The notes under the pieces were generated by a model that was not told the DNA's origin, searched no databases, and was given only the letters and a program-made list of their open reading frames with translations. Positions 1 to 60,695 of a stretch of DNA of 64,000 nt are shown here, one piece after another. A program made the translations under genes and the position numbers. Within the stretch, counting starts at the first letter, position 1; every line of letters starts with the position of its first letter. Source of the DNA: Candidatus Iainarchaeum sp. (GTDB lineage Archaea; Iainarchaeota; Iainarchaeia; Iainarchaeales; JAFCCJ01); contig JBDRHK010000015.1 of assembly GCA_043816965.1 (NCBI GenBank), positions 1-64,000 on the forward strand, read 5' to 3'.

Positions 1-141
1 ACAACTGAAGCGATGCATAAATATGTCACAGAAAGCCAGCAAAAACACTGGAAAGCGGAAAAGCCGAAACCCGCGCAGACGACGCTGCTGCAGTTCAATT
101 GATTACAAAGACGCCTGCCGCTTCAGCGGCAGGTAGTTCAC
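1..141 (+). mobile_element. tnpA: Right end of an IS200/IS605-family element (3' end of tnpA plus RE hairpin), continuing beyond the window
   Basis: Frame 1 reads TTEAMHKYVTESQQKHW...QFN* (stop 100-102), like the C-terminal catalytic-Tyr helix of Y1 transposases; followed by hairpin CCTGCCGC-TTCA-GCGGCAGG (114-133) and TAGTTCAC (134-141), typical of IS200/605 right ends. Confidence 0.8.
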
Positions 142-905: not shown

Positions 906-1028
906 TTACAAATCACTTCCGGATTTTGACAAGAGCCATATTTCCCTGTCCGTCAGTTCTTCTAAATTAGACTCTTTTAAAATCTCTAAACTTTGAATTT
1001 CTTTATTTGTTAAAAATGGAATTTTCAT
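906..1028 (-). CDS. Conserved 40-aa small protein, copy 1
   Basis: MKIPFLTNKEIQSLEILKESNLEELTDREIWLLSKSGSDL; RBS GGAGGTGA upstream; similar to ORF 57867-57998. Confidence 0.7.
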   Translation of the reverse strand: MKIPFLTNKEIQSLEILKESNLEELTDREIWLLSKSGSDL

Positions 1029-1196: not shown

Positions 1197-1321
1197 TGTA
1201 TCTTTTTGATGGAATTCATGTCAACTAGGTTAACCTAACATTAATCATAAAATGCTCTGCAACGGGGGAGGCCAAGGGCAAATAAACTGGATTCTGTGAA
1301 GGACCGCGAACAAAAAGAGAA

Positions 1322-6924: not shown

Positions 6925-8115
6925 TCAAATTCCCAGGTAAAAAACTATCACCGGCACCATCAGGAACGCCATGCAATTTGTCCTTTTTGTCCCTGTGCAA
7001 ATTGTGAGCAACCCAACAGCTGCTGAAACAACCAGCAAAAGAATTCCAACAACCCCGCTAAACCAATAGACCAAAAAGAAAAGTAAAATAATTATTATTT
7101 TGTTAATTAGGGAGTAATCGAATCTCGAAAGATTCTTTGCAACAATTATTGCCATCACCTCAGCGGCGATTGCCCCCACCCCAATCGCAATCAAGATAAC
7201 CGCAATGAAAATCAGCAGGGTATTCCAGTCCAGTTTAACCAATTCCTTGACCGCAACAGCTGCTCCTGTCCTTGTTTTCCCAAGCAGGAAAAGGATAAAG
7301 AAACTGAAAATTATATTGGTTGTATTAATCCCGCCCAGCATTACAAGATAGCCCTTGCTGCTCATTTTCCCCTTTAGTTTCCCTGCCATGAATGCTGCCT
7401 GGCTTGCCCCGACCCCGGGCAGTATGGAAACAAAACCCCCGGCCAGTGTGCTAAGAAGGGAATATTTTAAGACAGGATTTAATGGATATGAATCCTTTTT
7501 CACCAATTGTTTCCTCAATCTTGTTTTCACCCTTAAGGAGTTGAGCAGCGTGGATAGGCCAAAAAAACCAGTAACCAACGGAAATATTGGATTGCCTATT
7601 GCAAGGAAGTTCAGTGAAATTAATCCAATTACTGAGGAAAGCGCTACAATAGCAAAACTCCACAGGATTTTATTCTGTTTCTTCTGCCAGAAAACCATAA
7701 AGAGAAGAATCAGGATAAGGATGAACGGAACAAACTGGTAAATTATTTTTCCCCATTCCTCAATGAAGAGAAAGTAAACAGGGGAAATCAGCACCGCAAC
7801 AACACCCCCAAAAACCCCGCCAATGATTGTGAATTTTATCGCCGAAACCCCCTCCCCCTTAAGCAGTAATTTATGCCCGGGAAGAACCGAAAGAAAAGTG
7901 CTTTCTTCCCCTGCCCCCAAAAAAACACTTGGGATGAAATCAACAAATGACTGCACTGTGCTCATTGCGACAATCATCACCGCAACACCCAGGCCAAATT
8001 CCCCGAAAAGGCTGACCGCAACAAGGGCAACAGTGTTTGCATGGATTCCTGGAACCAGGCCTGTGGCAACTCCAAAAAAACAACCTACAAAAATAAAAAA
8101 CAGAATCTCAATCAA
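6925..8115 (-). CDS. TctA/DUF112-family multi-pass membrane protein
   Basis: TGLVPGIHAN, FIPSVFLG, SVLPGH, LPGVG motifs. Confidence 0.85.
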   Translation of the reverse strand: MIEILFFIFVGCFFGVATGLVPGIHANTVALVAVSLFGEFGLGVAVMIVAMSTVQSFVDFIPSVFLGAGEESTFLSVLPGHKLLLKGEGVSAIKFTIIGGVFGGVVAVLISPVYFLFIEEWGKIIYQFVPFILILILLFMVFWQKKQNKILWSFAIVALSSVIGLISLNFLAIGNPIFPLVTGFFGLSTLLNSLRVKTRLRKQLVKKDSYPLNPVLKYSLLSTLAGGFVSILPGVGASQAAFMAGKLKGKMSSKGYLVMLGGINTTNIIFSFFILFLLGKTRTGAAVAVKELVKLDWNTLLIFIAVILIAIGVGAIAAEVMAIIVAKNLSRFDYSLINKIIIILLFFLVYWFSGVVGILLLVVSAAVGLLTICTGTKRTNCMAFLMVPVIVFYLGI

Positions 8116-8501: not shown

Positions 8502-8519
8502 ATTCGTCAATTGACGAAT
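8502..8519. promoter_or_regulatory. Palindromic candidate operator, copy 1
   Basis: Perfect palindrome ATTCGTCAATTGACGAAT next to a TATA-like box for gene 8470(-). Confidence 0.7.
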
Positions 8520-9527: not shown

Positions 9528-10035
9528 GAGTTACCACTATTCCGGCATAATTATCCATATTGTCTATTTTTAATCCGCCTGAGCAGTTAACACTGCTACT
9601 ATCTAATAATAAGTCAAACACCTTGGCACATTTTTCATTATCCCCATCAATGTCATTAATGCAGGCAGACGGGGCCGAGTAAGCATTCAATAAAATCCCG
9701 TCCAGCGCAACCTGGAAGCAGATCCCATTCACGCAAGTTGCGCCAATATCGCTTAACTGGCAGGTTAGGATGGTGTTCCCAGGCACAAAAAGAGTAATGG
9801 TCCTTTTATTTTCCCCGGGAGCAACGCTCACAGCATCAATGGTATTTGCAAGCTTTTCCGCGGCAAATCTCGCCTGGCCAATCCTTGCGGTTTCCTTGCC
9901 GCTTGCGGCGGCAATTGTAAGCGAAGGGTTAACGACAGTCTGAATGAACAGGGCAATAATCATCACAAGCATAATTATTTCAATAGAGGCCTGACCCCGC
10001 CTGCCTAAATTTTGAAAAAAGGAAATAGAACCCAT
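9481..10035 (-). CDS. Pilin-like protein (class III signal peptide)
   Basis: RRG|QASIE plus hydrophobic stretch. Confidence 0.75.
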   Translation of the reverse strand: MGSISFFQNLGRRGQASIEIIMLVMIIALFIQTVVNPSLTIAAASGKETARIGQARFAAEKLANTIDAVSVAPGENKRTITLFVPGNTILTCQLSDIGATCVNGICFQVALDGILLNAYSAPSACINDIDGDNEKCAKVFDLLLDSSSVNCSGGLKIDNMDNYAGIVVTLEVEKDGSTTTVKLA

Positions 10036-11216
10036 AAAACATCCCCTATCAATTGAAGCAACAAATAACCAATCAATATTCCTGGCACAAATGCTGTTGT
10101 TCCCTTCACCTCTATCTTTTTCGGAATTAAGCCCTTATTCGCAAGTTCCTTAATCTCTTTTAATTGCTCCCCTGTAAGGCCGCCGGCGCTTGAGGAACTT
10201 GCAACAACCCTTGCCCCTGGCTTAATCGCCTGGTTAAGGGCATCCAAATTATTATCCATTAACTGCTTTATAAGTGTTCCTATAGAGGCCCCTTCCAGAA
10301 TCTCTATTTTTCCGCCCTTTTCAACAATGGTTTTTAGCGGAATCTCCCCCTCCTCCAGGTCCCTGACATCTTTCTCCATTCCCAAAAGCCTTGCCAATGC
10401 CTTTTTTGGCCTGTGGTGCACAACAATTTCAATTGTGAGAGTAATGGTGAGAATGATAACAAAAACTACGGCAAAACTAAATATTGCGCTTGGCACAGAA
10501 AGGTAGAGCGCGAAGGCCAACAGAATGGCCGCAAGGAATTTCTGCAGGAGATAGCTTATTTTTTTAAGCCCAAGCAAGCCAATCACTGTAACAATTGGCA
10601 GATGGAATATTTCAGGAACTCCCAGGAAAATAAGAAGGGTTGCTGTCCCAACAATCGCCGCAGTTGTTATAACAATGCCGTTAATTTTTCTTTTCACCAA
10701 TGCAACAACAACCCCCTTCAAATTCATTTTCTTTATCATTTCCCTTCTATCAATCATGCGCTTTAATGTTATTGCAGTCACCCATGGGACCATTGAAATA
10801 ATGCTGAAAACGAAAAGCGAAAAAGGGAAGATTGGCTCTGAAACAGACGCAAAATTAAAAGTAATGCCGAGAAGTGAAAGGCTTTCTAAACCAATTAAAT
10901 CCCTGAGGACACCATGGTTTACTGTGTTGATTGTGGCAAGCCCTGTCATCAGCTTAACATCGCCCCCCGCCCATCCCCCTGCCTTGTAAAGGAGCAATGA
11001 GCCAACGGCGGTGGCGAAGGTTACGGCGCCGGTTACAATGATTATTGAAGGGTCATTCGCAAGCAGGGACCTGATTCCCTGCAGAATCAGCCCGCCAAAA
11101 ATAAGTGAAAATGTGAGTTTATTGGAAACAATCCTTTCCCGTAAATCGGTAAATGTGGCGATAATAAGGGCGATTATTGAAATTATGAAGAAGAAAATAG
11201 GAAAGCTGATAGGCAT
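10005..11216 (-). CDS. Prepilin peptidase, A24 family, EppA-like long form
   Basis: TDLRERIV and WAGGDVKL aspartate motifs, many TMs, C-terminal FVPGI. Confidence 0.9.
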   Translation of the reverse strand: MPISFPIFFFIISIIALIIATFTDLRERIVSNKLTFSLIFGGLILQGIRSLLANDPSIIIVTGAVTFATAVGSLLLYKAGGWAGGDVKLMTGLATINTVNHGVLRDLIGLESLSLLGITFNFASVSEPIFPFSLFVFSIISMVPWVTAITLKRMIDRREMIKKMNLKGVVVALVKRKINGIVITTAAIVGTATLLIFLGVPEIFHLPIVTVIGLLGLKKISYLLQKFLAAILLAFALYLSVPSAIFSFAVVFVIILTITLTIEIVVHHRPKKALARLLGMEKDVRDLEEGEIPLKTIVEKGGKIEILEGASIGTLIKQLMDNNLDALNQAIKPGARVVASSSSAGGLTGEQLKEIKELANKGLIPKKIEVKGTTAFVPGILIGYLLLQLIGDVLWVLFPFFKI

Positions 11217-12965: not shown

Positions 12966-14117
12966 TCACACCGTCGGTTGCGCTATTTTTAGGTAATAAA
13001 CAAGTAAAATCATTATCCCTGGCATAAGCACCAGGTAGAATATTCCCATCATTGTGGGGTTAAGCCCAAGGCCGCCAACATTCGGCAGTGGGGAGTTTGT
13101 TATTCCCCCAATAACGGCAACAAACACAGGAATAACAATTGCCATAAAGATAAATATCACCCCGAAGAAATTCATCTTCTCCCCGAAATCCCTCATCGCA
13201 ATCCTGAGCTCAAAAGAAACATCCTCGGCAATCTTGTTCATTATGTCCGAGAGGTTTCCCCCTGTCTTAAGCGCACGTATTATGTGGAGCAATGCGCTTC
13301 TTAAGGATTTGGATTCTGTCCTCAGTGCAAAGTGCCTTAGGGCAACTTTAGTGTCTGTTCCCTCCTCAACCTCGGAAATGGTCCTTGAAAATTCCTCTGA
13401 AAGGACGCCATAATCAGAAACAGCGATTGCCTGCAGTGTTTTGTAAAGCCCTATTCCTGCCTTTAATTCTGTTGACATATGCCTGAGGGCAAAGGGAAGC
13501 TCAACACTGATTTCCTTACCCCTCTTCATTGCCTTACTTTTTGGGTTGAGGAAGCAGATAATGGCTGCAAATAGGAACACAAAAATTGCAATAATCGGCG
13601 AAAGCAGCAAAATTAAGTTGTTGTCAAGGAACCAGCCAAGTCCTGCAAACAAAAGCAGCACAAAGAATGCAGCAATCACTGAAACAGAGGTTGAAATCGC
13701 AAGATATTGCTGGATGCTGTATTTCATGTTTGCGCTGTAAAGGTAATAGCCTAACTCCCCCGCCCCCGGCATTCTTCTCAGAATCTTTGAAATGAACTTT
13801 AAGGGAAGCTCAAACAAAAGATAAACCCTGCCCAAGCTCCTGATTGTGGGGGAACTGAATTCAGTTAAATCCTCAATTCCCTGCACCCTTATTTTTGACA
13901 GCTGGCTTTCGGCAATTATTCCCCGCAGTTCGCTTAATCTGCCGCCAACTTCCTCAAATTCAACTCCCTGATCCCGATATTTTTTTTTCATCCTGGTTAC
14001 AATCTTGTCCACCGCATCAAGGTCGATTGATTCCTCATCCTTTTCAATCGCGCCGAACTTTTTGGCCGTTTTCTTTTTTTCTTCAACCTGTTTTCTCAGA
14101 TCATCAAGTTCAGGCAT
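12966..14117 (-). CDS. Pilus platform membrane protein (T2SSF/TadB-C-like)
   Basis: [25 protein letters not shown]. Confidence 0.9.
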
Positions 14118-17100
14118 ATTCTCCCCTCTTCTTTAGCAGGTGGTCCTGGCAGGCTTTTGATACCTCTTCTATAGACCTTATCTTCTTGTCAACAAGGCTC
14201 TTAAGAAACCTTTCCCTGTCCTTAAGTTCGGCATCAATCTGCTTTTTTGACAGTCCGGTGTATTTTTCAAGTGTCCTGAGGTATGCGCTGGAGAAATTGG
14301 ACCGAATGAGTTGATCAGTTATTGCATCCCTTTCGAAAAGGGTTTGGGTTGTTGATTTGCCCTCCAAGACCCCGCCAACCTCCGCCATCTCGGTAATTCT
14401 TCTAATGGTGCCTTTTTTCCTGTCATGAAGCCTGTGTTCTATAAGCACGAAATCAAGCCCTGAAAGCATCATCTTAGGGACATTCATCGGAGGGCTTGTG
14501 ACCCTTACTAGTGCCTCTTGGGGAGAGTTTGCGTGGACAGTCCCCATGCAATTTGAAACAAACAAGCCATTGGCAATGTAATTGTGGTTATCTTTAACAG
14601 TCAGGTCGTAAACATATCCCTCGAATTCCCGGTCCTTCACTTCAACTATTTCCTCGAACCTGAAATCAGATTCAACTAATTTTAAAAGTTCCTTTCCAAT
14701 GGAATTTTCGGAAGTTATCATTGCAATTTTTTCCAGTTGCCCTCTCGACGGATTTCTTTGGTTAGTTTCGTATGCCTCAATCGTTGACCTTGTTTTTGCA
14801 TTCATAAAAGATGCCAATTCTGTTTGCGTTAAGTAACAATCGCTCCTCGCCCTTTTGATTAAACCGGAAATTTTCGGGAACAAATCCATCGAATTTTTTG
14901 AAACTTTCAATAGTCCTGCTAGTTTTTGCCTTTTTGCAGAATGCCTGAAGCCGATTTTCCCCTGGTATTTTTCAAGGTTATCCTTACCATAAATTGAAAT
15001 TCTGTAGTAAGGGCCAATATTTCCTTTGCCGTCTTTTTCCTGAATATTTGTTGAGGAGTGAATCCCGAATCTCTGGAGAATCATCGGAAGTTTTTTTGCC
15101 AGGTCGGGGTTTGATGTTGAGAATTGGATTGAGTTTGAATGCAGATTCACATGGGCCTCAGCATCGAAAAACCCGCATAATAATTCCCCGATATTTGACT
15201 CACTTGAACTTAAAGCCTTTTTCGTTATTTTGAATTTTTTTGTTTTATTCCCTAGAGGAATATCATACTCCTCTTCAAAAAGTTTAACCAATTTTTTGTC
15301 AAAAACATTTACTCTGGAATAGTTTCCATAGTTTTTGACCGATACCTTGTTTTTGGTGGTTTTTCCAATCCCGTCCGCAAAATTTTCAATGACTGATTTT
15401 TCGTTGTTCACAAACTGAATCCCTTCGCTGTGAATGTGCCCATCTCCATAAATCAATCCTGCCAAGTAGGGATGTTTTATTTTTTCCGTGGCACTAATCG
15501 TGATTGCCTTTGGAAATGCAATGAAATCCCCCCCCTTTGCCTCTTCAGAATTTATTTCCTGAATGCCATTATGTATCCTGTAAATCGGATGGTCTTTTGT
15601 CAAACAAATGCGTTTTCCTGAGCGGGTTTTTATTATTTTCATCATTTCTTTTGTTTTCTTCTTCCAGACCCGCGTAATTGGCCTGTTTTCAATTTTCAAT
15701 GTCTTTTTGTTAAAGCTTGGGACAAGCAGTTCTTCACTTAATTCAACAAATTTAAATTCTCCGTCGCTTATTGGACATGTTTCATTAAATTGCCTTTCAA
15801 CAAAATCCCCAATTGCCTCAATATTCCCGTCTGAAAACTGAATTAATGTTTCTCCATTTAATGCGCCTTCATGGCCGGTATTCATGGCGGTAAAAAGCGA
15901 GAATGCCTCATCATGCCTTATCTCACCAACTATAATTCTGTCAGGCCTCATCCTGAGGGAATTTTTAGTCAAAATATCCATTGTTATTTCCCCAGTTCCC
16001 TCCATTCCCGGGGGCCTTGATTCAAGCCTTATCCAGTGTTTTAAGGGAAGGTTCAGTTCTGCAGTGTCCTCAATTGAAACAATCCTTTCAGAAGCAGGAA
16101 TAAATGAGGCAAGAACATTCAAAGTTGTTGTTTTCCCTGAACCGGTTCCTCCCGCAATCAGAATGTTTGCGGGCTTTACCCTCAATCCCTCAACACAAAG
16201 CCAGAGGAATGCAGCGGTTTCAAGGTTTACTGTATTGAGGTTCAGCAAATCAACTATTGACAACGGGTCTTCCCTGAATTTCCTTATAGTGAGGGTTGCA
16301 CCACTTACAGATATGGGGGGGATGGTCGCATTAACCCTGCTCCCATCAGGGAGTCTTGCATCCAGCAAGGGGGCGGAAATATCAACCCTTCTTCCCACCT
16401 GCCTTCCTATCCTGTTTACGAGGTCCTCTATCTCGGACTCGGAAAAGAATTCAATATTGGTTTTCATCATTTCATATTCCCTGTGGAAAACATAAACCGG
16501 GCGTTTTGCGCCAATAACCATAATTTCCTCAAGCCTGTCATCCTTTATCAGGGAATCAATAAGCCCATATCCGACCATCTCCCTCACAACAGCATCTGCA
16601 TAAAACTCAAATCTTCTAGTTGGAATCCTTAACTCTTTCGAGGTCTGCAGGATTTCCATTATTTTCTGCTGGTAAACACTTCTCCTCTCTTCAGGGTCAC
16701 GGATTTTGTAGGGGATTATGCTGATTATTCTTGTTGCAGCTTCCTTTATTGTGTTGATTATTGTTTTATCCCCCTTCGTCGGCCTTGGCACAGGGGTATA
16801 GTAGTACATCAGGGGTTGGCCAGGAATTTCATATATTGTCGTATTTCCGTAAGATGCAACCTTAATTTTCTTTACATTTTCCATCTCCTTTTCGATTGTT
16901 GATTTATCCGGTTCTTCCTCTCCTTCTTTGGCGGGAATTCCCTCCACCGAGGCAGGCCCCTTAGGCACTTCAGGGGATTTTCTCCTCTCAAAAATGTTCA
17001 TAATCCCCTCCTTCCTGCTCTCAATTTCAGGAGTCTCCTCTTTTACCGGGGCAGCCACTGGCTCTTGGCGGGCCAAAAATTCATCTGCAGAAGGACCATT

Positions 17101-17208
17101 GGCTATAGGTTGCGAAGTTGCAGGGCCAGTTTCTATAGTAGACCCCTCTACCTTAATCCCCTTTTTTTCCTTTGCCTTTCTAATCAGATCATCCAAAGGG
17201 TTAGACAT
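14110..17208 (-). CDS. Pilus assembly ATPase (VirB11/TadA/KlbA family), intein-containing
   Basis: [43 protein letters not shown]; probable start MSNPLDD. Confidence 0.95.
14551..15864 (-). mobile_element. KlbA-type intein (Ala1, 438 aa) with LAGLIDADG and HTH domains
   Basis: [10 protein letters not shown]...LTKDHP...LAGLIYGDG...LCGFFDAE...VYDLTV...FVSN|CMG. Confidence 0.93.
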
Positions 17209-17250
17209 ATATATCCCATTAATCAACAACGTTTCTTTTATTTAATGGTT

Positions 17251-27960: not shown

Positions 27961-28070
27961 TTATTTAACTGTATTTGCAACAATTCTTAACTATTGCCAG
28001 GCAAAAGTGGATTTTCTTTGAAAAGCAAACTTTTTATTTGTTTTCGCTTAGAATTACTAATGGTGCTAAT

Positions 28071-28544
28071 TTGGAAATAACCCTTGATAAGACCGACCAT
28101 AAGATTATTCAGTGCCTTCTTGAGGATGGGCGCATGAGTTTCAGCAGCATAGCAAAAGACGTCCAGCTTACCGATGTTGCAATAAAGAAAAGGGTTGAAA
28201 GGCTTAAGAGAAAGGGCGTGATAAATTCAATAACTGCCGATTTGAACCTCAAGGTTTTGGGCTATGAAAATCCGATTTTTGTGCAAATCCGCTCCGAAAT
28301 GGGCAAGACAAAAAATTTGGTTAAGAGGCTTTCTGATTTTGATTATGTGATAGAACTCTACCAAATTCTGGGCGAGTATAATCTCCTTGCGAAGTTAGTG
28401 CTTCCGGACATTGATTCTGCCGAGAAATTCATTAACCAGCTTGGGGTTTTGGATGGGATTCTTGACATAAAAACCCAGATGATTCTTAGCGAACTGAAGA
28501 AAAGCAATTCTCTCCCCATATTCTCCTTCCAGAAAAAACTTTGA
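28071..28544 (+). CDS. Lrp/AsnC family regulator
   Basis: LDKTD.KII..L.EDGRMSF..IA...V..RVERL..KGVI. Confidence 0.9.
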   Translation: MEITLDKTDHKIIQCLLEDGRMSFSSIAKDVQLTDVAIKKRVERLKRKGVINSITADLNLKVLGYENPIFVQIRSEMGKTKNLVKRLSDFDYVIELYQILGEYNLLAKLVLPDIDSAEKFINQLGVLDGILDIKTQMILSELKKSNSLPIFSFQKKL

Positions 28545-28639
28545 TTTCAATTACGCTTATGGCGCCCTGTATTTTTATGCTTTTTGATGTAAGAAAATCT
28601 AATGTTGATTTGTTGATGGGTTTTTGTTGGTGAGCTGAC

Positions 28640-35480: not shown

Positions 35481-35503
35481 TCGTCAATCAACGTAATATT
35501 TAA
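35481..35503 (+). promoter_or_regulatory. Palindromic candidate operator plus TATA, copy 2
   Basis: TCGTCAATCAACGTAATATTTAA upstream of ATG 35529. Confidence 0.65.
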
Positions 35504-35528
35504 GTTATTTTCCCAGCACCATTATTGC

Positions 35529-37819: not shown

Positions 37820-37845
37820 TTAAATATTACGTCAATTGACGAATA
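37820..37845 (-). promoter_or_regulatory. Palindromic candidate operator plus TATA, copy 3
   Basis: Minus strand TTCGTCAATTGACGTAATATTTAA upstream of ATG 37794. Confidence 0.7.
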
Positions 37846-39444: not shown

Positions 39445-40149
39445 TTACCCCTTCCTCTTCCTAATTAAAACCGCCGCGAAAAAGCCCACAATAAGTGCGG
39501 TTGCGACTATTGGGATAAGGAACAAAATTGCCTGCTCAAAAGTAATTATCGGGTCTGTGGGGATATCGGTCCACATTACCTGTTTATCTTCAGGAACCAG
39601 ATTTTCCCCGGCCTTCCCTATCTCATCTTCCCTTTCAGCAGCTGGTTTTGGCTCCTCCCCGCCTGCCACAGTGGTTCCTCCTCCGGAATCGACTAAATCC
39701 TTATCAGCCACAGGTGCCACAATATTGTCCACCCCGCCATCACCGAACATTTGAGGAGGGGCCATTGTTTCAGAGGATGCAAGTGTGCCTGTTGACATAT
39801 AATAAATTCCAAAACTGCTTGCAAACAAAAGCAAAAATCCAACCAATGCAATTGCCGAGATTGAAAGAACTATCAGTATTGTTGTATCGCTCTCATCCCC
39901 CTCAAGAAGGTTCTTCCCCTTCCTTGTGAGCGTATAATACTTCCATTTTCTCCCCTCATCAATCTGCTCAATAATCTCTGACTTAAGGAGAATGTCCAAA
40001 TGCTGCTTAATGCTGGGAGAAGCCATCTCCATTTTAGAGGCAATTTCAGTAAGTGTGTGGTTCCTCTCCTTTAGCAGCTTAATTATTTGCACCCTGGTAT
40101 CAGAACTCAGGGCCTTGAATTCTGTTGATGAAAGTGTCAGTTCAGCCAT
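39445..40149 (-). CDS. ArsR-family HTH regulator with two TM helices
   Basis: FKALSSDTRVQI.KLL, HL..L, RKWKYY.LT.KG. Confidence 0.85.
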   Translation of the reverse strand: MAELTLSSTEFKALSSDTRVQIIKLLKERNHTLTEIASKMEMASPSIKQHLDILLKSEIIEQIDEGRKWKYYTLTRKGKNLLEGDESDTTILIVLSISAIALVGFLLLFASSFGIYYMSTGTLASSETMAPPQMFGDGGVDNIVAPVADKDLVDSGGGTTVAGGEEPKPAAEREDEIGKAGENLVPEDKQVMWTDIPTDPIITFEQAILFLIPIVATALIVGFFAAVLIRKRKG

Positions 40150-40275
40150 GCAAATCACATAGTTAGCTAATTACATAACTATCCTTTTTAAGCTTTAAAT
40201 AGCTTTCATTTTAGTTAGCTAACCGGCTTTCTGAAAGGATTAAATACTCGAATGGAGTAATAAATTAGGGTCAAA

Positions 40276-43438: not shown

Positions 43439-44566
43439 ATGAAAAGGAACATTTTTGACAATGCCAGGGGTGAAAAGCGCATTTTCAAGGACGAAAGATA
43501 TCTCTATCCGGAATTTGTCCCTGAGAGGCTTTCCCACAGGGATTCTGAAATCAACAGCCTTGTATACGCATTCAATCCTGTTGCCAAGGGCGGAAAACCC
43601 CATAATGTTTTTGTCACAGGGGCAACAGGGACAGGGAAAACAGTGAGCGTGAAATATGTCCTGAACGAACTGGAGGAATACAGCGACAGGGCTAAGAAAC
43701 TATACCTGAACTGTTTTGAATACAATTCCCGCCATGCAATCCTATCAAAAATCGCGAATTTTCTTGGGGCGCCGATTCCAAGAAGGGGCCTTGCAACAGA
43801 CGAGATTTACTCCAAGATGCTGGAGGCAATGAAAAAGGTGGATTTCTTCCCGATAATAATCCTTGATGAAATCGACCAGATAATGAACATAACAGAATCC
43901 TCCAATCTGCTTTATGATTTATTGAGGGTAATTGAGTATCAGAGAAACCGTTTCGGACTTGCGATAATTTCCAATGACCCGTCTTTCACCTCAAAACTTG
44001 ACTCAAGGGTCAAAAGTTCCCTTGCGGAGGAGAAAGTTGTTTTCAATCCCTATACCCCGATCCAGATTAAGGACATATTGAAAGAAAGGGCAAACTACGC
44101 TTTCCAGGGGGATGCGCTTAATGAAGAGGTAATCCCAGTTGCCGCAGCCCATGCCGCGAAAAGGGGAGGGGATGCGAGGGTTGCGATAGAGGCGCTCTGG
44201 AAAGCAGGAAGGGAAGCTGAAAGGGAAAATGCGGGGAAAGTTGAATTAAAGCATTTGAAAATGGCATTTGAGATTGTGGATTCGGTTTCTGCCCTGAAGC
44301 ACGTGAAGGAGCTTGATGACAACGAAAAGGCGGTTCTCAAAATCATCGCCGAGCTTAGCCCAATCGCTTCAGGGGATTTGTATGAGAAATACTGCGCTTC
44401 AGAAAAGGAGCCCCTTTCCCAGCGCAGGGTGAGTGAATTCGTAACCAACCTCGAAAAAAGGAATTTAGTTTCTGCAGCTCTTATAAGCATGGGCAACAAG
44501 GGAAAAACAAGGCAGATTTCCCTCACTGCGCCAAAAGATGCCGTGCTGAAAGAATTAACGGATTAA
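43439..44566 (+). CDS. cdc6: Orc1/Cdc6 replication initiator
   Basis: FVPERL.HR, GATGTGKT, ILDEID, GDAR.AI, winged helix. Confidence 0.93.
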   Translation: MKRNIFDNARGEKRIFKDERYLYPEFVPERLSHRDSEINSLVYAFNPVAKGGKPHNVFVTGATGTGKTVSVKYVLNELEEYSDRAKKLYLNCFEYNSRHAILSKIANFLGAPIPRRGLATDEIYSKMLEAMKKVDFFPIIILDEIDQIMNITESSNLLYDLLRVIEYQRNRFGLAIISNDPSFTSKLDSRVKSSLAEEKVVFNPYTPIQIKDILKERANYAFQGDALNEEVIPVAAAHAAKRGGDARVAIEALWKAGREAERENAGKVELKHLKMAFEIVDSVSALKHVKELDDNEKAVLKIIAELSPIASGDLYEKYCASEKEPLSQRRVSEFVTNLEKRNLVSAALISMGNKGKTRQISLTAPKDAVLKELTD

Positions 44567-44590
44567 TTCGATAACACCTTCTTTCGTACG

Positions 44591-44614
44591 CCGCACCGGA
44601 AACCCACTCCCGAA
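44591..44614 (+). promoter_or_regulatory. 24-bp motif upstream of a LAGLIDADG gene, copy 2
   Basis: CCGCACCGGAAACCCACTCCCGAA followed by TATTTAAA. Confidence 0.65.
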
Positions 44615-44647
44615 GGCGTATTTAAAGACCCAATACAAAATTTTATT

Positions 44648-47107
44648 ATGGGTATTAAAGGACTTGATTGTAAAACAGAATATCATTGGTTTGATGAGCC
44701 AGATACTGTAAGAGTTAGATTAGAAAAAGAGCTCTGGGAAATATTTATAAATAAGGCAATTGCGAAGGCAGGCTCAAGAACCAGATTAGCAAATGCAACT
44801 GGACTATGCAAGGTAACTGTTTTCAATTATTTCCACAATATAAGTTTGACCGTAGGAGGGGTAAAGAAAATTCTTAATTTTTTAAACATTGATTACATGT
44901 CGGTTGAAGATAAAGTTAGGGAAATTGCTTGGACTAAAAACATTAAATTGCCAATAAAACTTAATACGCCATCTATGGCTACTATTTTAGCAGCAGTAAT
45001 TGGAGATGGAACTATTAGTGAAGTGCACGTAGAATATAAAAACAAGGATAGTGAGCTACTGAATAAAGTCGAGAAAGAAATAAAAAAGACTTTTGGAAAT
45101 GTTAAAATAGATCATAGAATTTCTGAGAAGGGCATTCCTTATATAGTTGCTAACAAAATTGTTAAAAGAGTTTTAATAAACGTTGGAGTGCCCGTTGGCA
45201 AAAAATTAAATAAAAATTCTGGAGTTCCAAAGATTATTGTGAATGGTTCAAAAAGAATGCAAAAAGCATTTATTCAGCAATTATTTGATGATGAAGGTTG
45301 GGTTGAAAACACCAATTATAAAATTGGATTATCGCAAGCCAATGAGTGTACTAATGCAATTAACAAAAAATTTTTTTCTGGAATGAAAATAAACAAGCCC
45401 TACAGCATAAATAAAATCCCCGAAGAAAATCGAAATAATGTTTTGCCTCCTCAACTCTTAACAGGCATAAGAAAAATCCTACATGAAAAATTTTTAGTCG
45501 AGTCCAATCTAAGGCTAAAAAGAATAATAAGGCGGAGAAAAGGATATGTTACTGCATTCTGGGAACTTAATGTGGGCAAGAAAGAATCATTATTAAACTT
45601 CAAAAATAGAATTGGATTTTATTGCAAGAGAAAAAGAAAAGACTTTGATTTAATGGTTGGATTAAGAGAAAGCATGGTTCCAAAAGACATTCTAAGTCAA
45701 ATATTTTACGAAGGAGCGAATCTTTCGAAGGAAAATGGGAGGTTTAAAGTTAAGGAAATATCCAAAAAGGTAAATCTCCACCCGTCCCGTATCAGGAAGA
45801 GGCTACAGACTCTCGTAAAAAGAGGTGTTTTTTATAAGAAAAATGGCGACTATGGCCTAAATCATAGTTATTTAATTAAAACCTTTTTTAACTCAACTAA
45901 TAGGGGTTTAATGCAAATAGGTTGTGTGGGTAAACCATCGAGTGGTAAGAGCACGTTTTTCAGTGCTGCAACACTTACTGATGTTGAAATTGATATGCGG
46001 CCATTCACAACTATCAAAGCTAATATTGGAACAGGATATATAACGACAAAATGCGTGCATGGGGAATTTGGCAAACAGTGCCAACCCCAGAATAGTAAAT
46101 GCGTAAATGGCATTAGACTCATACCAATTCAACTTTTAGATGTTGCAGGGCTAATTGAAGGTAGCTGGCAAGGTAAAGGACTTGGAAATTCTTTCATGTC
46201 GGATTTAATGCAAGCAAGTGCTTTAATCCATGTTTTGGATGTTGCCGGAATAACAGATGCGCAGGGCAATGTCTGTGGTTCAGGAACGCATGATCCGGCA
46301 GTTGACATTAAGTTTCTCGAGAGGGAGATTTCATATTGGATAAAAAGCATTTTAACAAAAAACTGGGCTAAAATAAGTAAACAATCCGGATTGAATGAGA
46401 AGGGTCCTGGAGTAGCATTGGCAAAACAGTTGAGCGGATTGGGAATAAGTGAAGATTGTGTGAATGATGTTTTGAAAGAAGGCAATTTCAGTGATAAGCC
46501 ATATTCATGGAACGAAGAAGAAATTTTGAGATTTAGCGGGCTGGTTAGGGATAAAAGCAAACCTTTGTTGATTGCTGCCAATAAGATAGATCTTGCTGGG
46601 GCGCGAGAAAAATATGAAAAAATAAAGAAAGAATTTCCAAATTATAAGATTTTTCCAACTTCCGGAGCGGCAGAGCTTGCATTAAGAAAAGCAGAGAGAA
46701 ATGGGATAATAAAGTATGTTCCAGGTGAAGATAAGTTCGAGATTGTAAAAGGAGATATTGATGAAAAGCAAAGGAAAGGATTAGATTTTATTCAGAAAAA
46801 TATCCTTGATAAATATGGTTCGACCGGGATACAGAACGTGTTAAATAAAACAGCATTTGAACTTTTGGATTTGATAGTAGTTTATCCTGTTGAGGACCAG
46901 AATAAGTGGACAAGTGGGCAGGGAAATATTCTCCCAGATGCTTATTTGTTGAAGAGAGGAAGTACTCCAAAAGATTTATCTGGCAAAATTCACAGTGATT
47001 TTATTGATAAGTATATTGGGTCAATAAATTGCAAAACAGGCCAAAAGATTTCTGAAAATTATAAACTGCAAAACAACGATGTTATCAAAATTATGCTCTC
47101 TCACTAA
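44648..47107 (+). CDS. ychF: LAGLIDADG endonuclease-like/HTH region fused in frame to a YchF/Ola1-type GTPase (GTPase part from 45911)
   Basis: ILAAVIGDG and FIQQLFDDEG; then MQIGCVGKPSSGKST, PFTTI, DVAGL, ANKID, TGS domain. Confidence 0.85.
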   Translation: MGIKGLDCKTEYHWFDEPDTVRVRLEKELWEIFINKAIAKAGSRTRLANATGLCKVTVFNYFHNISLTVGGVKKILNFLNIDYMSVEDKVREIAWTKNIKLPIKLNTPSMATILAAVIGDGTISEVHVEYKNKDSELLNKVEKEIKKTFGNVKIDHRISEKGIPYIVANKIVKRVLINVGVPVGKKLNKNSGVPKIIVNGSKRMQKAFIQQLFDDEGWVENTNYKIGLSQANECTNAINKKFFSGMKINKPYSINKIPEENRNNVLPPQLLTGIRKILHEKFLVESNLRLKRIIRRRKGYVTAFWELNVGKKESLLNFKNRIGFYCKRKRKDFDLMVGLRESMVPKDILSQIFYEGANLSKENGRFKVKEISKKVNLHPSRIRKRLQTLVKRGVFYKKNGDYGLNHSYLIKTFFNSTNRGLMQIGCVGKPSSGKSTFFSAATLTDVEIDMRPFTTIKANIGTGYITTKCVHGEFGKQCQPQNSKCVNGIRLIPIQLLDVAGLIEGSWQGKGLGNSFMSDLMQASALIHVLDVAGITDAQGNVCGSGTHDPAVDIKFLEREISYWIKSILTKNWAKISKQSGLNEKGPGVALAKQLSGLGISEDCVNDVLKEGNFSDKPYSWNEEEILRFSGLVRDKSKPLLIAANKIDLAGAREKYEKIKKEFPNYKIFPTSGAAELALRKAERNGIIKYVPGEDKFEIVKGDIDEKQRKGLDFIQKNILDKYGSTGIQNVLNKTAFELLDLIVVYPVEDQNKWTSGQGNILPDAYLLKRGSTPKDLSGKIHSDFIDKYIGSINCKTGQKISENYKLQNNDVIKIMLSH

Positions 47108-56078: not shown

Positions 56079-57101
56079 ATGGCTGAGAAATCCAAATACC
56101 CGGATACCAATAAGATAGAGGTTCCCCGCAAGCTTATTGACCAGGTTATCGGGCAGGAATCTTCAGTGGAGCTTATCCGGAAAGCCGCCGCGCAAAAAAG
56201 AAATGTATTGCTTGTAGGCCTCCCAGGAACTGGAAAATCAATGCTTGCCCAGGCAATGTCTGAAATTCTGCCGATTCAGCGTTTGGTGGATGTCCTAATT
56301 TACCCCAATTCCGAGGATGCCAATACCCCGAAAGTGAGGGTTATGAGGGCAGGAGAGGGGCAGAAAGTTCTCCAACGGGCAAGGCTGGATGCAAAGGGCC
56401 AGGAAGACAATATTAGGCTGATGGGCCTGCTTCTCCCTTTGGGCTGGTTTATAATAACCTGGCTGATGTATGCTGTTTTTGGCTTAATGCATGTGAATGT
56501 TTATGCCGCAAGCCTTATTTTGGGCGGATTCCTTATAGTCGCACTTGCATTAGGGAGCCAGATGAAAATAAGGCAGGGAACAACAATCCCAAAACTCCTA
56601 ATTAACAATGCCGGAAAAAAGATTGCCCCTTTTATTGAGGCAACTGGTGCAAGGGCAGGTGCATTGCTAGGGGATGTAAGGCATGACCCGCTGCAATGTT
56701 TTTACGGCTTTAACGTGCTTTATTTACAAAAAGAAGATCAAAATGGATCTGAATTTGTAGAAAAACCATTTTTAGAGCTTTGGGAAGAAATGTACGAAAA
56801 GTATGGCAAAGAAGTTATACGAAACAGTAAAGGATACGAAGCAATAATGATTCCGCCTGAGGAAAAGATTTATACTTTGGGGCATAAAGATGGCAAGGTC
56901 ATTTTATCAAGAATACTTTCCCTTAACAGACAGCCTTTTGAGGGAGAGCTTGTTGAATTAAAAGTTGGAGATAAGACAGTTTCATTGACGCCAGAGCATA
57001 AAGTAGATACTGCAAAAGGCGACAAAGAGGCAGGTCAGATTTCTGAAAGAGACGGTTTGATTAAACTGGTTAAGGTTGAACTTGCCAAGATTCTCAGTTA
57101 G
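56079..57101 (+). CDS. lonB: LonB N-terminal part fused to split-intein N fragment
   Basis: LIDQVIGQ, GLPGTGKS, two TMs, GALLGDVRHDPLQ|CFYG...; stop after 134 intein residues. Confidence 0.93.
   Translation: MAEKSKYPDTNKIEVPRKLIDQVIGQESSVELIRKAAAQKRNVLLVGLPGTGKSMLAQAMSEILPIQRLVDVLIYPNSEDANTPKVRVMRAGEGQKVLQRARLDAKGQEDNIRLMGLLLPLGWFIITWLMYAVFGLMHVNVYAASLILGGFLIVALALGSQMKIRQGTTIPKLLINNAGKKIAPFIEATGARAGALLGDVRHDPLQCFYGFNVLYLQKEDQNGSEFVEKPFLELWEEMYEKYGKEVIRNSKGYEAIMIPPEEKIYTLGHKDGKVILSRILSLNRQPFEGELVELKVGDKTVSLTPEHKVDTAKGDKEAGQISERDGLIKLVKVELAKILS
56697..57098 (+). mobile_element. Split intein N fragment (134 aa)
   Basis: Cys1 directly after DPLQ; block B LTPEH (TxxH). Confidence 0.9.
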
Positions 57102-57154
57102 AGATATGCCCTATCTTGTTGATAAGGGGCAGCCTCCAGAAAATTAACGTTCAA

Positions 57155-57640
57155 TTAGGCTTCAACAAATTGCCCTGTTTCTAGATTTCTTTTGCATTTG
57201 TCCCAAGTATAAACTCTGCCATTCATTGCAATGTAAACGCCGTTCTCAAGGACATTTATAAGGCCAATTGCCACCCCGATATTAAATGAGGCATCTGAAT
57301 TAGAGAATTTTTCTGGCCTCATAGCGCCTGTCAAAATTATAACTTTATTAATATCGCTTAGATTTTTGGCAGTTTCAATCATTGTATCTGTTCCATGGGT
57401 AATTATAATTTTATCAGCATCTGCCTTTTGGCAAGCAGCATATATTTTCTACCTGTCTTTTTCTGTAATGTCTAGGCTATCTTTTTTGAGAACTGAGATC
57501 ACTTCAAAATCAAAGCAGGGATTTACTTTTTGCAGTATTCTTGTTACGGCAGGTTCAGCGATTTCAAAGGCATACCCATTTGTCGTTCTTGGATAGTCTT
57601 TATCAATTGTTCCCCCAGTTTGAATGAAAAATATCTTCAT
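57155..57640 (-). pseudogene. Short asparaginase-domain gene with one in-frame TAG (57449-57451)
   Basis: TGGTIDK, HGTDTM, LTGAMRP, SDASFN all in one frame; DR*KIY. Confidence 0.85.
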
Positions 57641-57693
57641 AGTATAACCAAGCAATAAAATAGTTTAAATAACATAGGATTCAAAGTAGGCCG

Positions 57694-57882
57694 TATTTTT
57701 AAAAAATTCACCACCTCCAATAGAGAATTTTTTCTAAGGACTCTGATTTTCTCGGCTTAAACCTTTGCACGCCTGATTTCTACTTTTGGTGCAAAGGATT
57801 TAATGCCTCCAAAATCAGCAGAGACGTCCACGAAAAAATTCATTATTCTTGGAGGTGGTTTGATTGATGAATTTTCAAAATA
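57694..57882 (+). repeat. Long imperfect inverted repeat / fold-back hairpin, copy 2
   Basis: CCACCTCCAA/TTGGAGGTGG, GAATTTTTTC/GAAAAAATTC, CTGATTTT/AAAATCAG, CCTTTGCAC/GTGCAAAGG. Confidence 0.85.
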
Positions 57883-57998
57883 TTCAACTTCCCACAAGGG
57901 GAGAGATAAGGATGGCTGAAGAACTAGCCAGGTCAAATCCGGAGAACCTGACAGACAGGGAACTCTGGATTCTGAAAGAGACAGTGGGTGATTTCTAA
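57867..57998 (+). CDS. Conserved 43-aa small protein, copy 2
   Basis: MNFQNIQLPTRGEIRMAEELARSNPENLTDRELWILKETVGDF; RBS GGAGGTG at 57851. Confidence 0.7.
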   Translation: MNFQNIQLPTRGEIRMAEELARSNPENLTDRELWILKETVGDF

Positions 57999-58006
57999 TG
58001 CTTTTC

Positions 58007-58030
58007 CCGCATCGGAAGCCTACTCCCAAA
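58007..58030 (+). promoter_or_regulatory. 24-bp motif upstream of a LAGLIDADG gene, copy 3
   Basis: CCGCATCGGAAGCCTACTCCCAAA followed by TTTATAAG. Confidence 0.65.
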
Positions 58031-58075
58031 ATAGTTTATAAGAGTGAAAAACAGAATTTTAACAGAAGGGCTATA

Positions 58076-59074
58076 ATGTTGATCACTGAACAAGACATAA
58101 TTAATACTTATTCACAAGAGGAACAATGCTCTTGTAGAAAATATGTTGAATACAAGGAACTAATGCGAGAGAATCCTTCTTTTGGTTATAAGCGTTGTGC
58201 AAAACTATTAGGCGTTTCTCAGGGCAGAGTAAGGTGGTGGCATACCAAAGGGGCAAAGAGAGCAGTTCCATTAGCCCTGAAGGCGGTTGAGAAACTTAAG
58301 AACGTTGGCATAATTCCATTTACTGAAGAGCACAAACACGCCAACGTAATTCTCAATATTTTAGGGACCCTTTTTGGAGATGGCGGAATTGACAGAAGGC
58401 TCAATACAGCGGCGTTCATCTCCTCAGACAAAAAGGATGTTGATTTATGGAAGAAAGATTTGCTCGAGGCATTTCCCTTTGCAAAAAACAAAATGAATCT
58501 TGTAGAAGGGGGAGAGTGGGGGCATTCATATAACATTAGGACTTTTGATAGGAGTATTATAAGATTCTTTGTTGCATTAGGAGCGCCAGTTGGGGATAAG
58601 GTTGCTATAAAATACAGTTTGCCAAACTACATTTTCAACGTATCCTACGAACATAGGATTGCATTTTTGGATGGTATGTTAGCATCAGAGGTCTCAGTTC
58701 CGAGATTTAGGGACGATTCTTACCAGAACAAGAGATTCACAGATTTCAGTTTAAGTTTATCAAAAATTGATACATTACAAGACGAGCATAGGCTTTTTAT
58801 GAGGAGTTTTGAAGATTTATTAAATTCTGTTGAAGTGGCCACAACAGGTAATCTGAGAAAAGATTTTCATCTAAAAAGAAAAAGAAAGGACGGTCATTTA
58901 AGTTCGCCTTACAGGATTTTCATTAGAACAATTTTTTGGAGAGTTTTATATTTCAACAATTTATTTCCTTTAAGGTACTGTCATGGCAAGAAAAAACGTC
59001 TGCAAAAAGAAATTGAATTTGCAGTAAACTACAAGCAGAAATCTGTTAAACGGGGATTGGAGAAATGCCTATGA
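58076..59074 (+). CDS. Free-standing LAGLIDADG homing endonuclease with N-terminal HTH
   Basis: GYKRCAKLLGVS HTH; ILGTLFGDG and FLDGMLASE; probable start MLITEQD. Confidence 0.88.
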   Translation: MLITEQDIINTYSQEEQCSCRKYVEYKELMRENPSFGYKRCAKLLGVSQGRVRWWHTKGAKRAVPLALKAVEKLKNVGIIPFTEEHKHANVILNILGTLFGDGGIDRRLNTAAFISSDKKDVDLWKKDLLEAFPFAKNKMNLVEGGEWGHSYNIRTFDRSIIRFFVALGAPVGDKVAIKYSLPNYIFNVSYEHRIAFLDGMLASEVSVPRFRDDSYQNKRFTDFSLSLSKIDTLQDEHRLFMRSFEDLLNSVEVATTGNLRKDFHLKRKRKDGHLSSPYRIFIRTIFWRVLYFNNLFPLRYCHGKKKRLQKEIEFAVNYKQKSVKRGLEKCL

Positions 59075-59184
59075 AATCTGTTTTAAAAATACTATTGGTG
59101 TTGGCTATACTTGCTGGTTTTATTTTTTTAGCATCCTATGTATTTGGTTTTATTAATATGCTTGTTTTTTCTACAATTTTCTAA
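59071..59184 (+). CDS. Small hydrophobic protein, 37 aa
   Basis: MKSVLKILLVLAILAGFIFLASYVFGFINMLVFSTIF; ATGA overlap with endonuclease stop; GGAG upstream. Confidence 0.45.
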   Translation: MKSVLKILLVLAILAGFIFLASYVFGFINMLVFSTIF

Positions 59185-59273
59185 CTGCGGCAAATCGAGT
59201 TGTAGAAATGTAATTTTATTGTGATATCCTTGCAATGCAAGATATTTAATAATATTGTAATTATTATCTATTT

Positions 59274-59396
59274 ATGGAACATAAATCAAAAACAGAGAGG
59301 GTTTCTTCAGTATCTAAGCGGCCTTTTAGGGGTCATGTCTATAATGTTACAACTGAAACAGGCAACCTCTTTGTTGAGGATGTTCTGGTTCACAAT
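59274..59396 (+). mobile_element. Split intein C fragment (41 aa)
   Basis: Block F VYNVTT..GN and block G VLVHN|S. Confidence 0.92.
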
Positions 59397-60695
59397 TCGG
59401 GCGGGTTGGGAACACCCCCTCACTTGCGTGTTGAGCCAGGAATGGTCCACAGGGTTAATGGAGGGGTTCTCTTTTTGGATGAGATTTCCACTCTCTCCCC
59501 AAAATCCCAGCAGGAATTGCTTACAGCAATGCAGGAAAAGAAATTCTCAATTACGGGCCAAAGCGAGATGAGTTCAGGTGCAATGACAAGGACAGAGCCG
59601 GTTCCATGCGATTTTGTCCTTATTGCCGCAGGGAATTACAATGATTTGAGAAAAGTTCATCCTGCACTTAGGAGCAGGATAAGGGGCTATGGTTATGAGG
59701 TCTATATGAACCTTGAAATGGAAGACAATGAGGAGAACAGGAAAAAGATTGTGCAGTTTATTGCGCAGGAAGTAACAAAGGATGCCAAAATCCCGCATTT
59801 CTCGGCAGATGCAATTGAGTCAATTATTTTCGAGGCAAGGAGAAGGGCAGGAAGGAAAAATAAACTCACCCTTAAGTTAAGGGATTTAGGCGGGCTGGTC
59901 AGGGCCGCAGGAGACATTGCAAAGGAAAAAGGCCATGGCCTGGTTGACGCACAGGATGTTCTCGAGGCAAAGATGTCGGCAAGAACCCTGGAACAGCAGA
60001 TGGTTAACAAAATTATTGATGAAAAGAAGGATTATGATGTTTACCTTTTTGAGGGAAGTGCCATTGGGAGGGTTAACGGCCTTGCGGTTTCAGCAGACGG
60101 GGATGCGGGGCTCATCCTGCCCATAGAGGCAGAAGTTGCCCCTGCCCAGAGCAGTGCTGAAGGCAAGCTAATTGCAACCGGAAAGCTTGGGGAGATAGCA
60201 AAGGAAGCTGTGCAGAATGTCTCCGCAATAATAAAGAAATTGAGCGGAAAAGACATTGCCAGCCATGACCTCCATATTCAGTTCCTCCAAACCTACTCAG
60301 GTGTTGAGGGCGACAGCGCGTCAGTTAGTGTTGCAACAGCGGTGATTTCCGCGCTTGAGGGAATTCCTGTAAAGCAGAGCCTTGCAATGACCGGTTCTTT
60401 AAGTGTCAGGGGAGAGGTTCTGCCAGTGGGAGGTGTTACGGCGAAAGTTTCAGCTGCAATCTTTGCTGGATTTAAGGAAGTAATTGTCCCATATGCAAAT
60501 AAGGACGATATTATTCTTCACAAAGAACGCCTGGATAAAATAAAAGTAATTCCCGCAAAAAACCTTTCCGATGTCCTGGAAAATGCATTTGAAAAATCCC
60601 CTAAAAAGAAAAAGTTCATGACCTCCTTGAAAAAACTGCTTCACATCGAACTTTCAAATGTAGTGGAAAAAGTGATTCCCAAAACAGTGGCATGA
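59274..60695 (+). CDS. lonB: Split-intein C fragment fused to LonB C-terminal part
   Basis: [44 protein letters not shown]. Confidence 0.95.

Follow-up and report, generated by a model that had tools for sequence, protein, structure and literature searches.

What links three homing endonuclease genes whose proteins can be aligned pairwise barely or not at all, and why does each begin behind nearly the same 24 nucleotides? The genes lie in a stretch of 64,000 nt (here called the window) of Candidatus Iainarchaeum sp. (assembly GCA_043816965.1, contig JBDRHK010000015.1), which is archaeal by gene content (Cdc6, RFC, LonB, Cdc48 and archaeal pilus genes) and whose proteins have their closest relatives in DPANN genomes labelled Diapherotrites, Iainarchaeum or Micrarchaeota. 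We call each motif copy together with its gene L1 (787-810, minus strand), L2 (44591-44614, plus strand) and L3 (58007-58030, plus strand). The original prediction, read from the letters of this DNA, held that the motif precedes all of the LAGLIDADG genes that are not part of an intein, and this is what we see: a tblastn search with eight LAGLIDADG queries returned only four loci in the window, the intein of a secretion ATPase gene and L1, L2 and L3, and all three of the latter (3/3) are free-standing LAGLIDADG-type genes with the motif in front. Our analysis suggests that the 24-mer is probably the upstream part of a dedicated archaeal promoter, rather than part of a coding sequence, an RNA element or the end of a transposon.

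The three copies, CCGCACCGGAAAGGAGGTCCCGAA at L1 (810 to 787), CCGCACCGGAAACCCACTCCCGAA at L2 and CCGCATCGGAAGCCTACTCCCAAA at L3, were found exactly as the original prediction had quoted them, and the finding is real and non-random. Scanning the whole 64 kb with the predicted consensus at up to three mismatches gave three exact matches and a lone match with three mismatches (position 17844, within the ThrRS gene), compared with a mean of 0.13 matches in 100 dinucleotide shuffles, of which none (0/100) reached four. A relaxed pattern of the left half matched the window 12 times, against 2.7 in shuffles, with the full element only at the three known sites. The spacing had been described correctly too, the distance from the end of the motif to the ATG being 33 nt at L2, 45 nt at L3 and 38 nt at L1, and a TATA-like box does follow each copy, 6-10 nt from the motif and 27-40 nt before the ATG. 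As read from the sequence, this box is TTTAAA at L2 (44621-44626, plus strand; 27 nt 5’ of the ATG at 44648, a spacing seen also in orthologues), TTTATAA at L3 (58035-58041, plus strand) and ATATAT at L1 (775-780, minus strand; 32 nt 5’ of the ATG at 748).

Comparing the copies with each other, we found that outside the N5 spacer L1 and L2 agree throughout (19/19) and that within it they differ at each of the five positions; L2 and L3 are identical at 20 of 24 (four differences). The similarity between L2 and L3 is limited to the 24-mer, since the flanking promoter parts agree at only 6 of 13 and 13 of 22 positions, and L3 is closer to L2 than to any orthologue (best 16/24). Half-sites that are kept around a free spacer, with a likeness that stops at the motif, fit selection on a putative binding site better than a recent copy, and the within-genome likeness of the three copies fits sites that would track the specificity of one resident factor.

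Because the consensus came from the same three sites, an independent test was made. A 24-nt matrix trained on 11 orthologous promoters of other genomes, with no window sequence among them, placed L1 (23.1 bits) and L2 (21.2 bits) at ranks 1 and 2 in the window and L3 (15.0 bits) at rank 4, rank 3 being a site at 7791 that has no TATA box and lies within the TctA gene; the maxima of 100 mononucleotide shuffles had a mean of 13.9 (standard deviation 2.1) and a highest value of 21.6. A 19-nt matrix, built from 20 promoters from outside the window and scanned over positions -150 to +30 of 68 candidate window genes, gave L2 (24.3 bits), L1 (17.6) and L3 (16.2) as the top three of the 68, the next gene scoring 7.7. 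Throughout 1.06 Mb (related loci plus window), scores of 20 or higher were restricted to L3-type promoters and to L1 and L2 of the window. The motif is not a general k-mer of TATA-ATG promoters, and in the window it is confined to 3 of the 68 genes; an unbiased 6-mer enrichment over 211 TATA-(25..31)-ATG candidates was noisy, with the core not generally enriched. A sigma-70/terminator scan was set aside, as the host is archaeal and this type of scan does not apply to it.

The same block was found upstream of the orthologous endonuclease gene in close relatives. A genome scan with the L3 family yielded 72 loci (given below by numbers such as L003), 28 of them close DPANN relatives, and in 23 of these 28 the pattern [CG]CGG[ACT]A stands 23-27 nt 5’ of a TATA-like box. 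When the 23 promoters are aligned, the C, G, G and A of CCGG.A are invariant and the right half (ACTCCC, then RAAGCG beside the TATA box) is less conserved than this core. Read 5’ to 3’, the order is the core CACCGG(A/C)A, with its CCGG beginning 23-27 nt 5’ of the TATA box (and most commonly about 51 nt from the ATG), then a free spacer, the pyrimidine run ACTCCC, the purine-rich RAAGCG, the TATA box and, about 28 nt on, the ATG; in 11 of the 28 close loci the start of the TATA box and the ATG are exactly 28 nt apart. The imperfect dyad CGGAA-N6-TCCCG that had been proposed for the motif is weak, as only its left part contains invariant letters across the 23 promoters. The endonuclease gene of close relatives has this layout with or without an open frame across the region.

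In archaeal promoters the B recognition element (BRE) lies directly 5’ of the TATA box. By this general architecture the purine-rich stretch would occupy the place of the BRE, and the core would lie at about -55 to -47. The stretch directly 5’ of the TATA box here (RAAGCG or CGAAGG) is only moderately conserved, the BRE consensus being general background knowledge, and the distance of about 28 nt from TATA box to ATG suggests a leaderless mRNA or one with a very short leader. From sequence, position and conservation we infer a transcription start, the binding of a factor and co-regulation along the following lines. TBP and TFB would bind the TATA box and the BRE, and a sequence-specific factor would bind at about -55 to -38, contacting the core and possibly also the pyrimidine half. 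In this position it would either recruit or block TFB; in this way the three free-standing endonuclease genes would be switched together. On our best reading the motif is thus a candidate binding site for a trans-acting factor, operator or activating, that adjoins the BRE and TATA box. The original prediction had offered a regulator site shared by divergent endonucleases as one of its two readings, and this part fits the data, with proteins that align barely or not at all, half-sites that are kept and a spacing that is fixed across species; the regulon that it added is a plausible extension. Some archaeal activators are known to bind immediately 5’ of the BRE, as the excerpted text on TFB-RF1 (PMC5937170) describes.

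A look-alike element is found in more distant DPANN relatives. There the same endonuclease occurs either as a domain of a contiguous Lon intein or free-standing, and in the free-standing form the TATA box is preceded by one to three copies of CACTGGACA or, in other lineages, of CACGACA. From the start of CACTGGACA it is 22-26 nt to the TATA box and 52-54 nt to the ATG, and CACCGGAAA has the same geometry. A strict CACTGGACA pattern with TATA box was matched 18 times in the 1.06 Mb, compared with 3.7 in shuffles, and among the 12 matches with a called downstream ORF (open reading frame) the ATG lay 52-54 nt from the motif start in eight; allowing up to one mismatch and requiring both TATA box and ATG, 13 matches were found where about 2.5 would be expected from shuffles. 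Several of the genes behind the element are not endonuclease genes of the LAGLIDADG type, and the set is therefore probably wider than these. Exact CACTGGACA copies with TATA box and ATG precede a PD-(D/E)XK/Cas4-like nuclease gene (L047:794-1636) and an RNase_H_2-fold exonuclease gene (L066:6218-7021), the motif and a TATA box stand upstream of a RadC gene (L066:783-1406; all three by Pfam), and a copy with one mismatch precedes priL in L027. In orthologous PD-(D/E)XK promoters we saw a TTCGGAAAC-like element at the right distance in L068 and none that was recognisable in L050. A lead from these genes is that the endonuclease genes may be plugged into a DNA-repair or recombination regulon of the host.

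Two further CACTGGACA sites occur in L049. A double copy with TATA box precedes an ORF (9651-11029) that begins within the intein N-part (MKKNHEAVFVP..), so lonB is broken at another point there, and a second double copy (7759-7768, minus strand) faces the opposite direction in front of a small ORF.

Several points weigh against a dedicated regulator site and against the wider gene set. With the 24-nt matrix L3, although orthologous to the training set, stays at 15.0 bits inside the range of the shuffle maxima, and in about 0.4 Mb of flanks of close relatives there was no second high-scoring site before an identifiable gene. The sole candidate in those flanks is cut off by the end of its locus (L020:13221). 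The equivalence of CACCGGAAA and CACTGGACA is suggested by position and by seven identical letters out of nine. The match before priL has one mismatch, and about 2.4 such matches would arise by chance; when no ATG is required, the five matches before non-endonuclease genes are close to the shuffle expectation for all matches (3.7), and the wider repair regulon draws on a few genes of three genomes. Since the non-endonuclease matches are so near to the shuffle expectation, a "repair regulon" is a lead rather than a result. Lastly, in many orthologues a frame is open from GGAGGTGAT and an ATG through the motif; translation through the motif is therefore possible there, and a second, translationally coupled route of expression is possible in these loci.

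At L020:13221-13304, the motif-like TTACCGGAAACCTGCTC is followed by a T/A-rich box and, about 29 nt later, by an ATG; the site lies after a PCNA-like gene and a GC-rich stretch that looks structured.

Could the motif instead be protein-coding, as part of an N-terminal extension of the endonuclease that is translated by coupling from an upstream small ORF? From the ATG at 57998, which overlaps the stop codon of that ORF (TAATG, 57996-58000), L3 reads M-L-F-P-H-R-K-P-T-P-K-I-V-Y-K, and L2 in the same frame reads ..T-P-H-R-K-P-T-P-E-G-V-F-K, with three of the four differences between them at third codon positions; many orthologues, moreover, have the Shine-Dalgarno-like GGAGGTGAT and an ATG with a frame open through the motif into the gene. 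The L2 frame, however, has no ATG, GTG or TTG upstream of 44648, back to the cdc6 stop. Orthologues read CCG as a codon where the window’s L2 and L3 read CGG, i.e. the frames differ; the orthologous frame meets a TAA inside the TATA box in the window, five loci (L003, L004, L005, L024 and L025) have an in-frame stop at the TATA box and others lack an upstream start. Residues change (S/F/L/P, R/Q, Y/F/L) where bases stay fixed, and the information per codon position upstream (1.15/0.88/1.06) lacks the periodicity that the endonuclease coding sequence shows in the same 12 loci (1.38/1.65/0.81). By our own calculation, three of four differences would fall on third positions by chance with a probability of about 0.09. 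Given these frame differences, stops, missing starts and absent codon periodicity we rejected the coding hypothesis, which we think improbable. An RNA element was rejected as well: RNAalifold predicted no pairs over the stretch from motif to ATG of 23 promoters, and searches against Rfam, at the gathering threshold and by E-value, and for tRNA genes returned nothing of relevance. A purely historical similarity, in which a promoter-plus-gene module was recently duplicated or converted between endonuclease cassettes and no dedicated regulator exists, would account for three copies that are mutually closer (20/24) than L3 is to any orthologue (at most 16/24), and for the hairpin of about 190 nt and the small ORF that L1 and L3 share at about 80% identity even though their endonucleases cannot be aligned. 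It does not explain why L2 has nothing beyond the 24-mer in common with L1 and L3, why the flanks of the motif are at background identity or why the L1 spacer is wholly replaced with both half-sites intact, and the core is kept in 23 of 28 species, which requires selection; we give this account a slim chance. The other reading of the original prediction, a mobile-element terminal repeat or insertion target, is not supported and seems to us extremely unlikely. The motif does always lie at the 5’ edge of the endonuclease unit, shortly past the stop codon of the preceding gene, but in window scans none of the three genes had a further copy close by, in either orientation, an endonuclease-free orthologous GTPase locus (L007, n = 1) has no motif, and the likeness to the Lon extein junction (11/24) is below the shuffle mean of 12.5, by which a mimic of the homing site was rejected too.

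Two other alternatives accept a protein-binding site and differ in the protein that would bind it. One is a site like an origin recognition box (ORB), bound by a protein of the Orc1/Cdc6 family that would act as a transcription regulator in the manner of Orc1-2 of Sulfolobales. The euryarchaeal ORB consensus GTTCCAGTGGAAAC-AAA----GGGGG, as it appears in the excerpt of PMC1868953, shares GGAAAC with the window motif, and the palindromic core of that consensus is matched by the element of distant relatives, CCACTGGA; the promoter unit CCACTGGACAAAAGGGGTG of L029 resembles ORB-like repeats that flank an AT-rich stretch next to the cdc6 gene of that locus. L2 is located 24 nt past cdc6, linkage of cdc6 to the Lon/endonuclease region is seen in 10 distant loci, the genes behind the element are repair or replication genes, and Orc1-2 regulates damage-response promoters (excerpt of PMC6061795). 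On the other hand, the window copies match the 14-mer GTTCCAGTGGAAAC at only 10, 8 and 7 of 14 positions (our own count), and a scan at up to three mismatches misses all three sites and shows no enrichment of the consensus in the window (9 matches vs 9.5 expected), so that a canonical ORB was rejected. There is no G-string 3’ of the window motifs (L2 is followed by a C-rich stretch), the copies are single and are neither clustered nor arranged as an inverted pair about an AT-rich stretch for unwinding, L2 is 3’ of cdc6, and the Sulfolobales element is a different sequence. Overall, an ORB-like site read by such a protein has a small chance of being right. The remaining candidate is the endonuclease itself, which would regulate its own gene through its DNA-binding domain, in particular the helix-turn-helix (HTH) of the Lon-associated enzyme. 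The phage enzyme I-TevI is a precedent for autoregulation of this kind, and LAGLIDADG sites have lengths in a range that includes that of the motif. At its N-terminus the L3-type enzyme has a highly conserved HTH (GYKRCAKLLGV.QG.TRWWH), and within the close group it is always accompanied by the motif. Against this, the three window enzymes have no common DNA-binding domain, the motif is unlike the Lon homing site, and the HTH variant does not track the motif variant consistently across groups, because L066, L047 and L049 have CACTGGACA before other genes and yet the HTH variant of the group without His. We regard autoregulation as very unlikely. Candidates for the factor that are encoded in the window would include Cdc6/Orc1 (43439-44566), an AsnC/Lrp-type protein (27975-28544), an ArsR-type protein (39445-40158), the HTH parts of the L2 and L3 enzymes and the 43-amino-acid product of the small ORF.

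A bolder version of the promoter reading can be put together from these pieces. Endonuclease genes across DPANN would have captured an ORB-like operator of a host replication/repair regulon, read by a regulator of the Orc1/Cdc6 family beside the BRE and TATA box; they would be expressed along with the repair nucleases of the cell, at a time when copying of the element can mend a break, and every independent fracturing of the Lon intein would have picked up this operator anew. We consider this scenario unlikely.

The closest parallel is found in phage. For fractured-gene phage endonucleases, the excerpted text of Dassa et al. 2009 (PMC2677866) describes 5’ nucleotide motifs and a promoter element shared across host genes. 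As in that system, an endonuclease gene here lies between two halves of a host gene with split-intein parts, and endonuclease genes of different settings share 5’ motifs; an RNA hairpin that sequesters a ribosome-binding site, also part of the excerpt (PMC2677866), has its counterpart in a predicted pairing with GGAGGTGGT. The differences are considerable. The host here is archaeal, with a BRE/TATA-type promoter in place of a phage late promoter, and the enzymes are of the LAGLIDADG type instead of Vsr-like or HNH/GIY-YIG; in the phage type the promoter is embedded in the hairpin, but here the motif lies outside it; the hairpin masks the site of the small ORF and not the endonuclease start, and two of the three window genes are not in a fractured gene, with the hairpin at L1 and L3 only.

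Among archaeal regulators, the sites of TFB-RF1 (PMC5937170) and EarA (PMC5512572), as excerpted, are similarly placed immediately upstream of BRE/TATA at about -38 to -60 and occur at few promoters. The window sequence is unrelated to them and belongs to a DPANN lineage. The Orc1-2 regulon of Sulfolobales (excerpt of PMC6061795) is likewise built on a short element in the promoters of DNA-repair/exchange genes, at about -23 to -55 relative to the ATG, and its regulator comes, as in our candidate case, from a non-canonical family; its element is ANTTTC and experimentally proven, unlike the purely inferred one described here, and the gene set of the latter is small and includes selfish endonuclease genes. 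With ORB and mini-ORB elements (excerpts of PMC1868953 and PMC1904270) the motif has in common the GGAAAC half, a distant variant that matches the core CCACTGGA and a location near cdc6, but the window copies fail the consensus at up to three mismatches, have no G-string, are single and keep a fixed distance from the TATA box. As a separate observation, four regions beside cdc6 genes look like origins, a build seen in distant loci only (L029:5799-6100, L035:3069-3470, L039:8160-8520 and L060:7696-8200), each with a long AT-rich stretch flanked by TTCC...GGAAA boxes with G-strings and lying 2-5 kb from the Lon/endonuclease region.

Our literature searches listed no description of this motif or of a fractured Lon gene in DPANN. 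How DPANN archaea regulate their genes is known only in small part. To our knowledge no regulator has been characterised in DPANN, and no cis-regulatory element or regulon has been established there; an operator-like element that is sharply defined and has a fixed geometry of core, TATA box and ATG could serve as a probe with which to fish out a first regulator. Such an element would also reveal the way in which very small genomes keep free-standing homing endonuclease genes in check, in parallel to phage and with archaeal promoter logic. The link to repair nuclease genes, if true, would point to a damage- or cell-cycle-coupled regulon in a lineage other than Sulfolobales, and for intein biology the combination of split LonB, endonuclease gene, hairpin and small ORF, kept in many relatives, is of interest in itself.

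The genes behind the three motif copies are diverse in state. At L2, the endonuclease part (HTH, LAGLIDADG_3 and winged HTH; 44648-45910, plus strand) is not closed by a stop codon and continues, in the same frame, as an Obg-like GTPase (45911-47107, plus strand; start MQIGCVGKPSSGKST). The latter keeps its normal N-terminus and has a TATA-like box of its own, TTAATTAAAA, which stands about 36 nt 5’ of it within the last part of the endonuclease frame. A search for L2-type relatives gave five matches, three of them free-standing proteins of 403-406 amino acids and the other two shorter, and all five begin at a conserved Met. Over 43439-47107, cdc6, the L2 endonuclease and the GTPase share one reading frame, and only a single TAA (44564-44566) separates cdc6 from the endonuclease; the motif starts 24 nt past that cdc6 stop codon. 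The L1 gene (95-748, minus strand; 217 amino acids) is a remnant, because its match covers only residues 1-214 of relatives that are about 510-530 amino acids long and contain LAGLIDADG_3 and HTH_3; these relatives were found by a full HMMER search after a word-based search had returned the window protein alone. The L3 gene (58076-59074, plus strand; 332 amino acids, free-standing) lies between the lonB halves and has 114 homologues, which some sources name intein or homing endonuclease. The secretion ATPase gene of the fourth LAGLIDADG locus, of type II/IV (14110-17229, minus strand), contains a full intein with LAGLIDADG_3 and HTH_3, and the motif was not found upstream of it.

Around L3, lonB is split into two genes separated by a gap (57102-59273), with intein parts of about 134 (N) and 41 (C) amino acids and the endonuclease gene in between, a layout that is also present in the close related loci inspected. 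The first gene (56079-57101, plus strand) encodes the LonB N-terminal half and the intein N-part (..DPLQ|CFYGFN..) and ends with its stop codon at 57101; the second (59274-60695, plus strand) encodes the intein C-part and the LonB C-terminal half. The second gene lacks the motif and is preceded, about 31 nt upstream, by a TATA-like box of its own; the motif is therefore not needed for its expression.

A long hairpin (57691-57879, plus strand) precedes L3, and in its basal helix ACCACCTCC pairs with the Shine-Dalgarno-like GGAGGTGGT of a small ORF; a second, conserved copy (1016-1204, minus strand) lies 5’ of L1. A profile search with nhmmer found the hairpin, about 190 nt long, in 18 related loci, and it is absent at L2. 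An alignment of 19 copies (17 from related loci) supports 39 pairs, with 92.6% of cells paired and 18 pairs showing compensatory changes, a level reached by 0 of 500 shuffles. Its invariant blocks are GAATTTTTTC, CTTAAAC, TTTAATGCCTCC and GAAAAAATTC; the profile also matches its own reverse strand, and Rfam gave no match to the hairpin. The motif is outside the hairpin, 128 nt (L3) and about 206 nt (L1) 3’ of it.

Between hairpin and motif lies the small ORF (57867-57998, plus strand; 43 amino acids), whose stop codon overlaps an ATG and ends 9 nt before the L3 motif begins, and a paralogue (906-1028, minus strand; 40 amino acids) is found upstream of L1. They belong to a family of small acidic ORFs of 40-56 amino acids (..PT.EEI....L..RELWIL..) with 11 related loci in the alignment; in some loci the ORF has been lost, with its first codons joined in phase to the reading frame of the endonuclease. 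The predicted structure is a helical hairpin (predicted local distance difference test score, pLDDT, 83), with no fold match in the PDB at E <= 0.001 and no match in Pfam or NCBIfam. A role of this product as a DNA-binding regulator was considered and dropped, as the predicted model and the searches give no evidence for it.

A few minor features complete the picture of the region. Inside the lonB gap, two adjacent asparaginase-like ORF fragments (57155-57655, minus strand; Pfam Asparaginase, E = 1.8e-7 for one of them) are probably a pseudogene. The last part of the L3 gene overlaps with a hydrophobic ORF of 39 amino acids (59065-59184, plus strand), and a T-run stands between this ORF and the promoter of the Lon C-half. 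Elsewhere in the window, the palindrome TCGTCAATTGACGA occurs at 8504-8517 and 37829-37842 (one exact and one single-mismatch copy, 0.10 expected), and inverted repeats akin to it have their arms at 28592-28625 and 35481-35523; all are intergenic, and the palindromes and related repeats may represent a different operator family.

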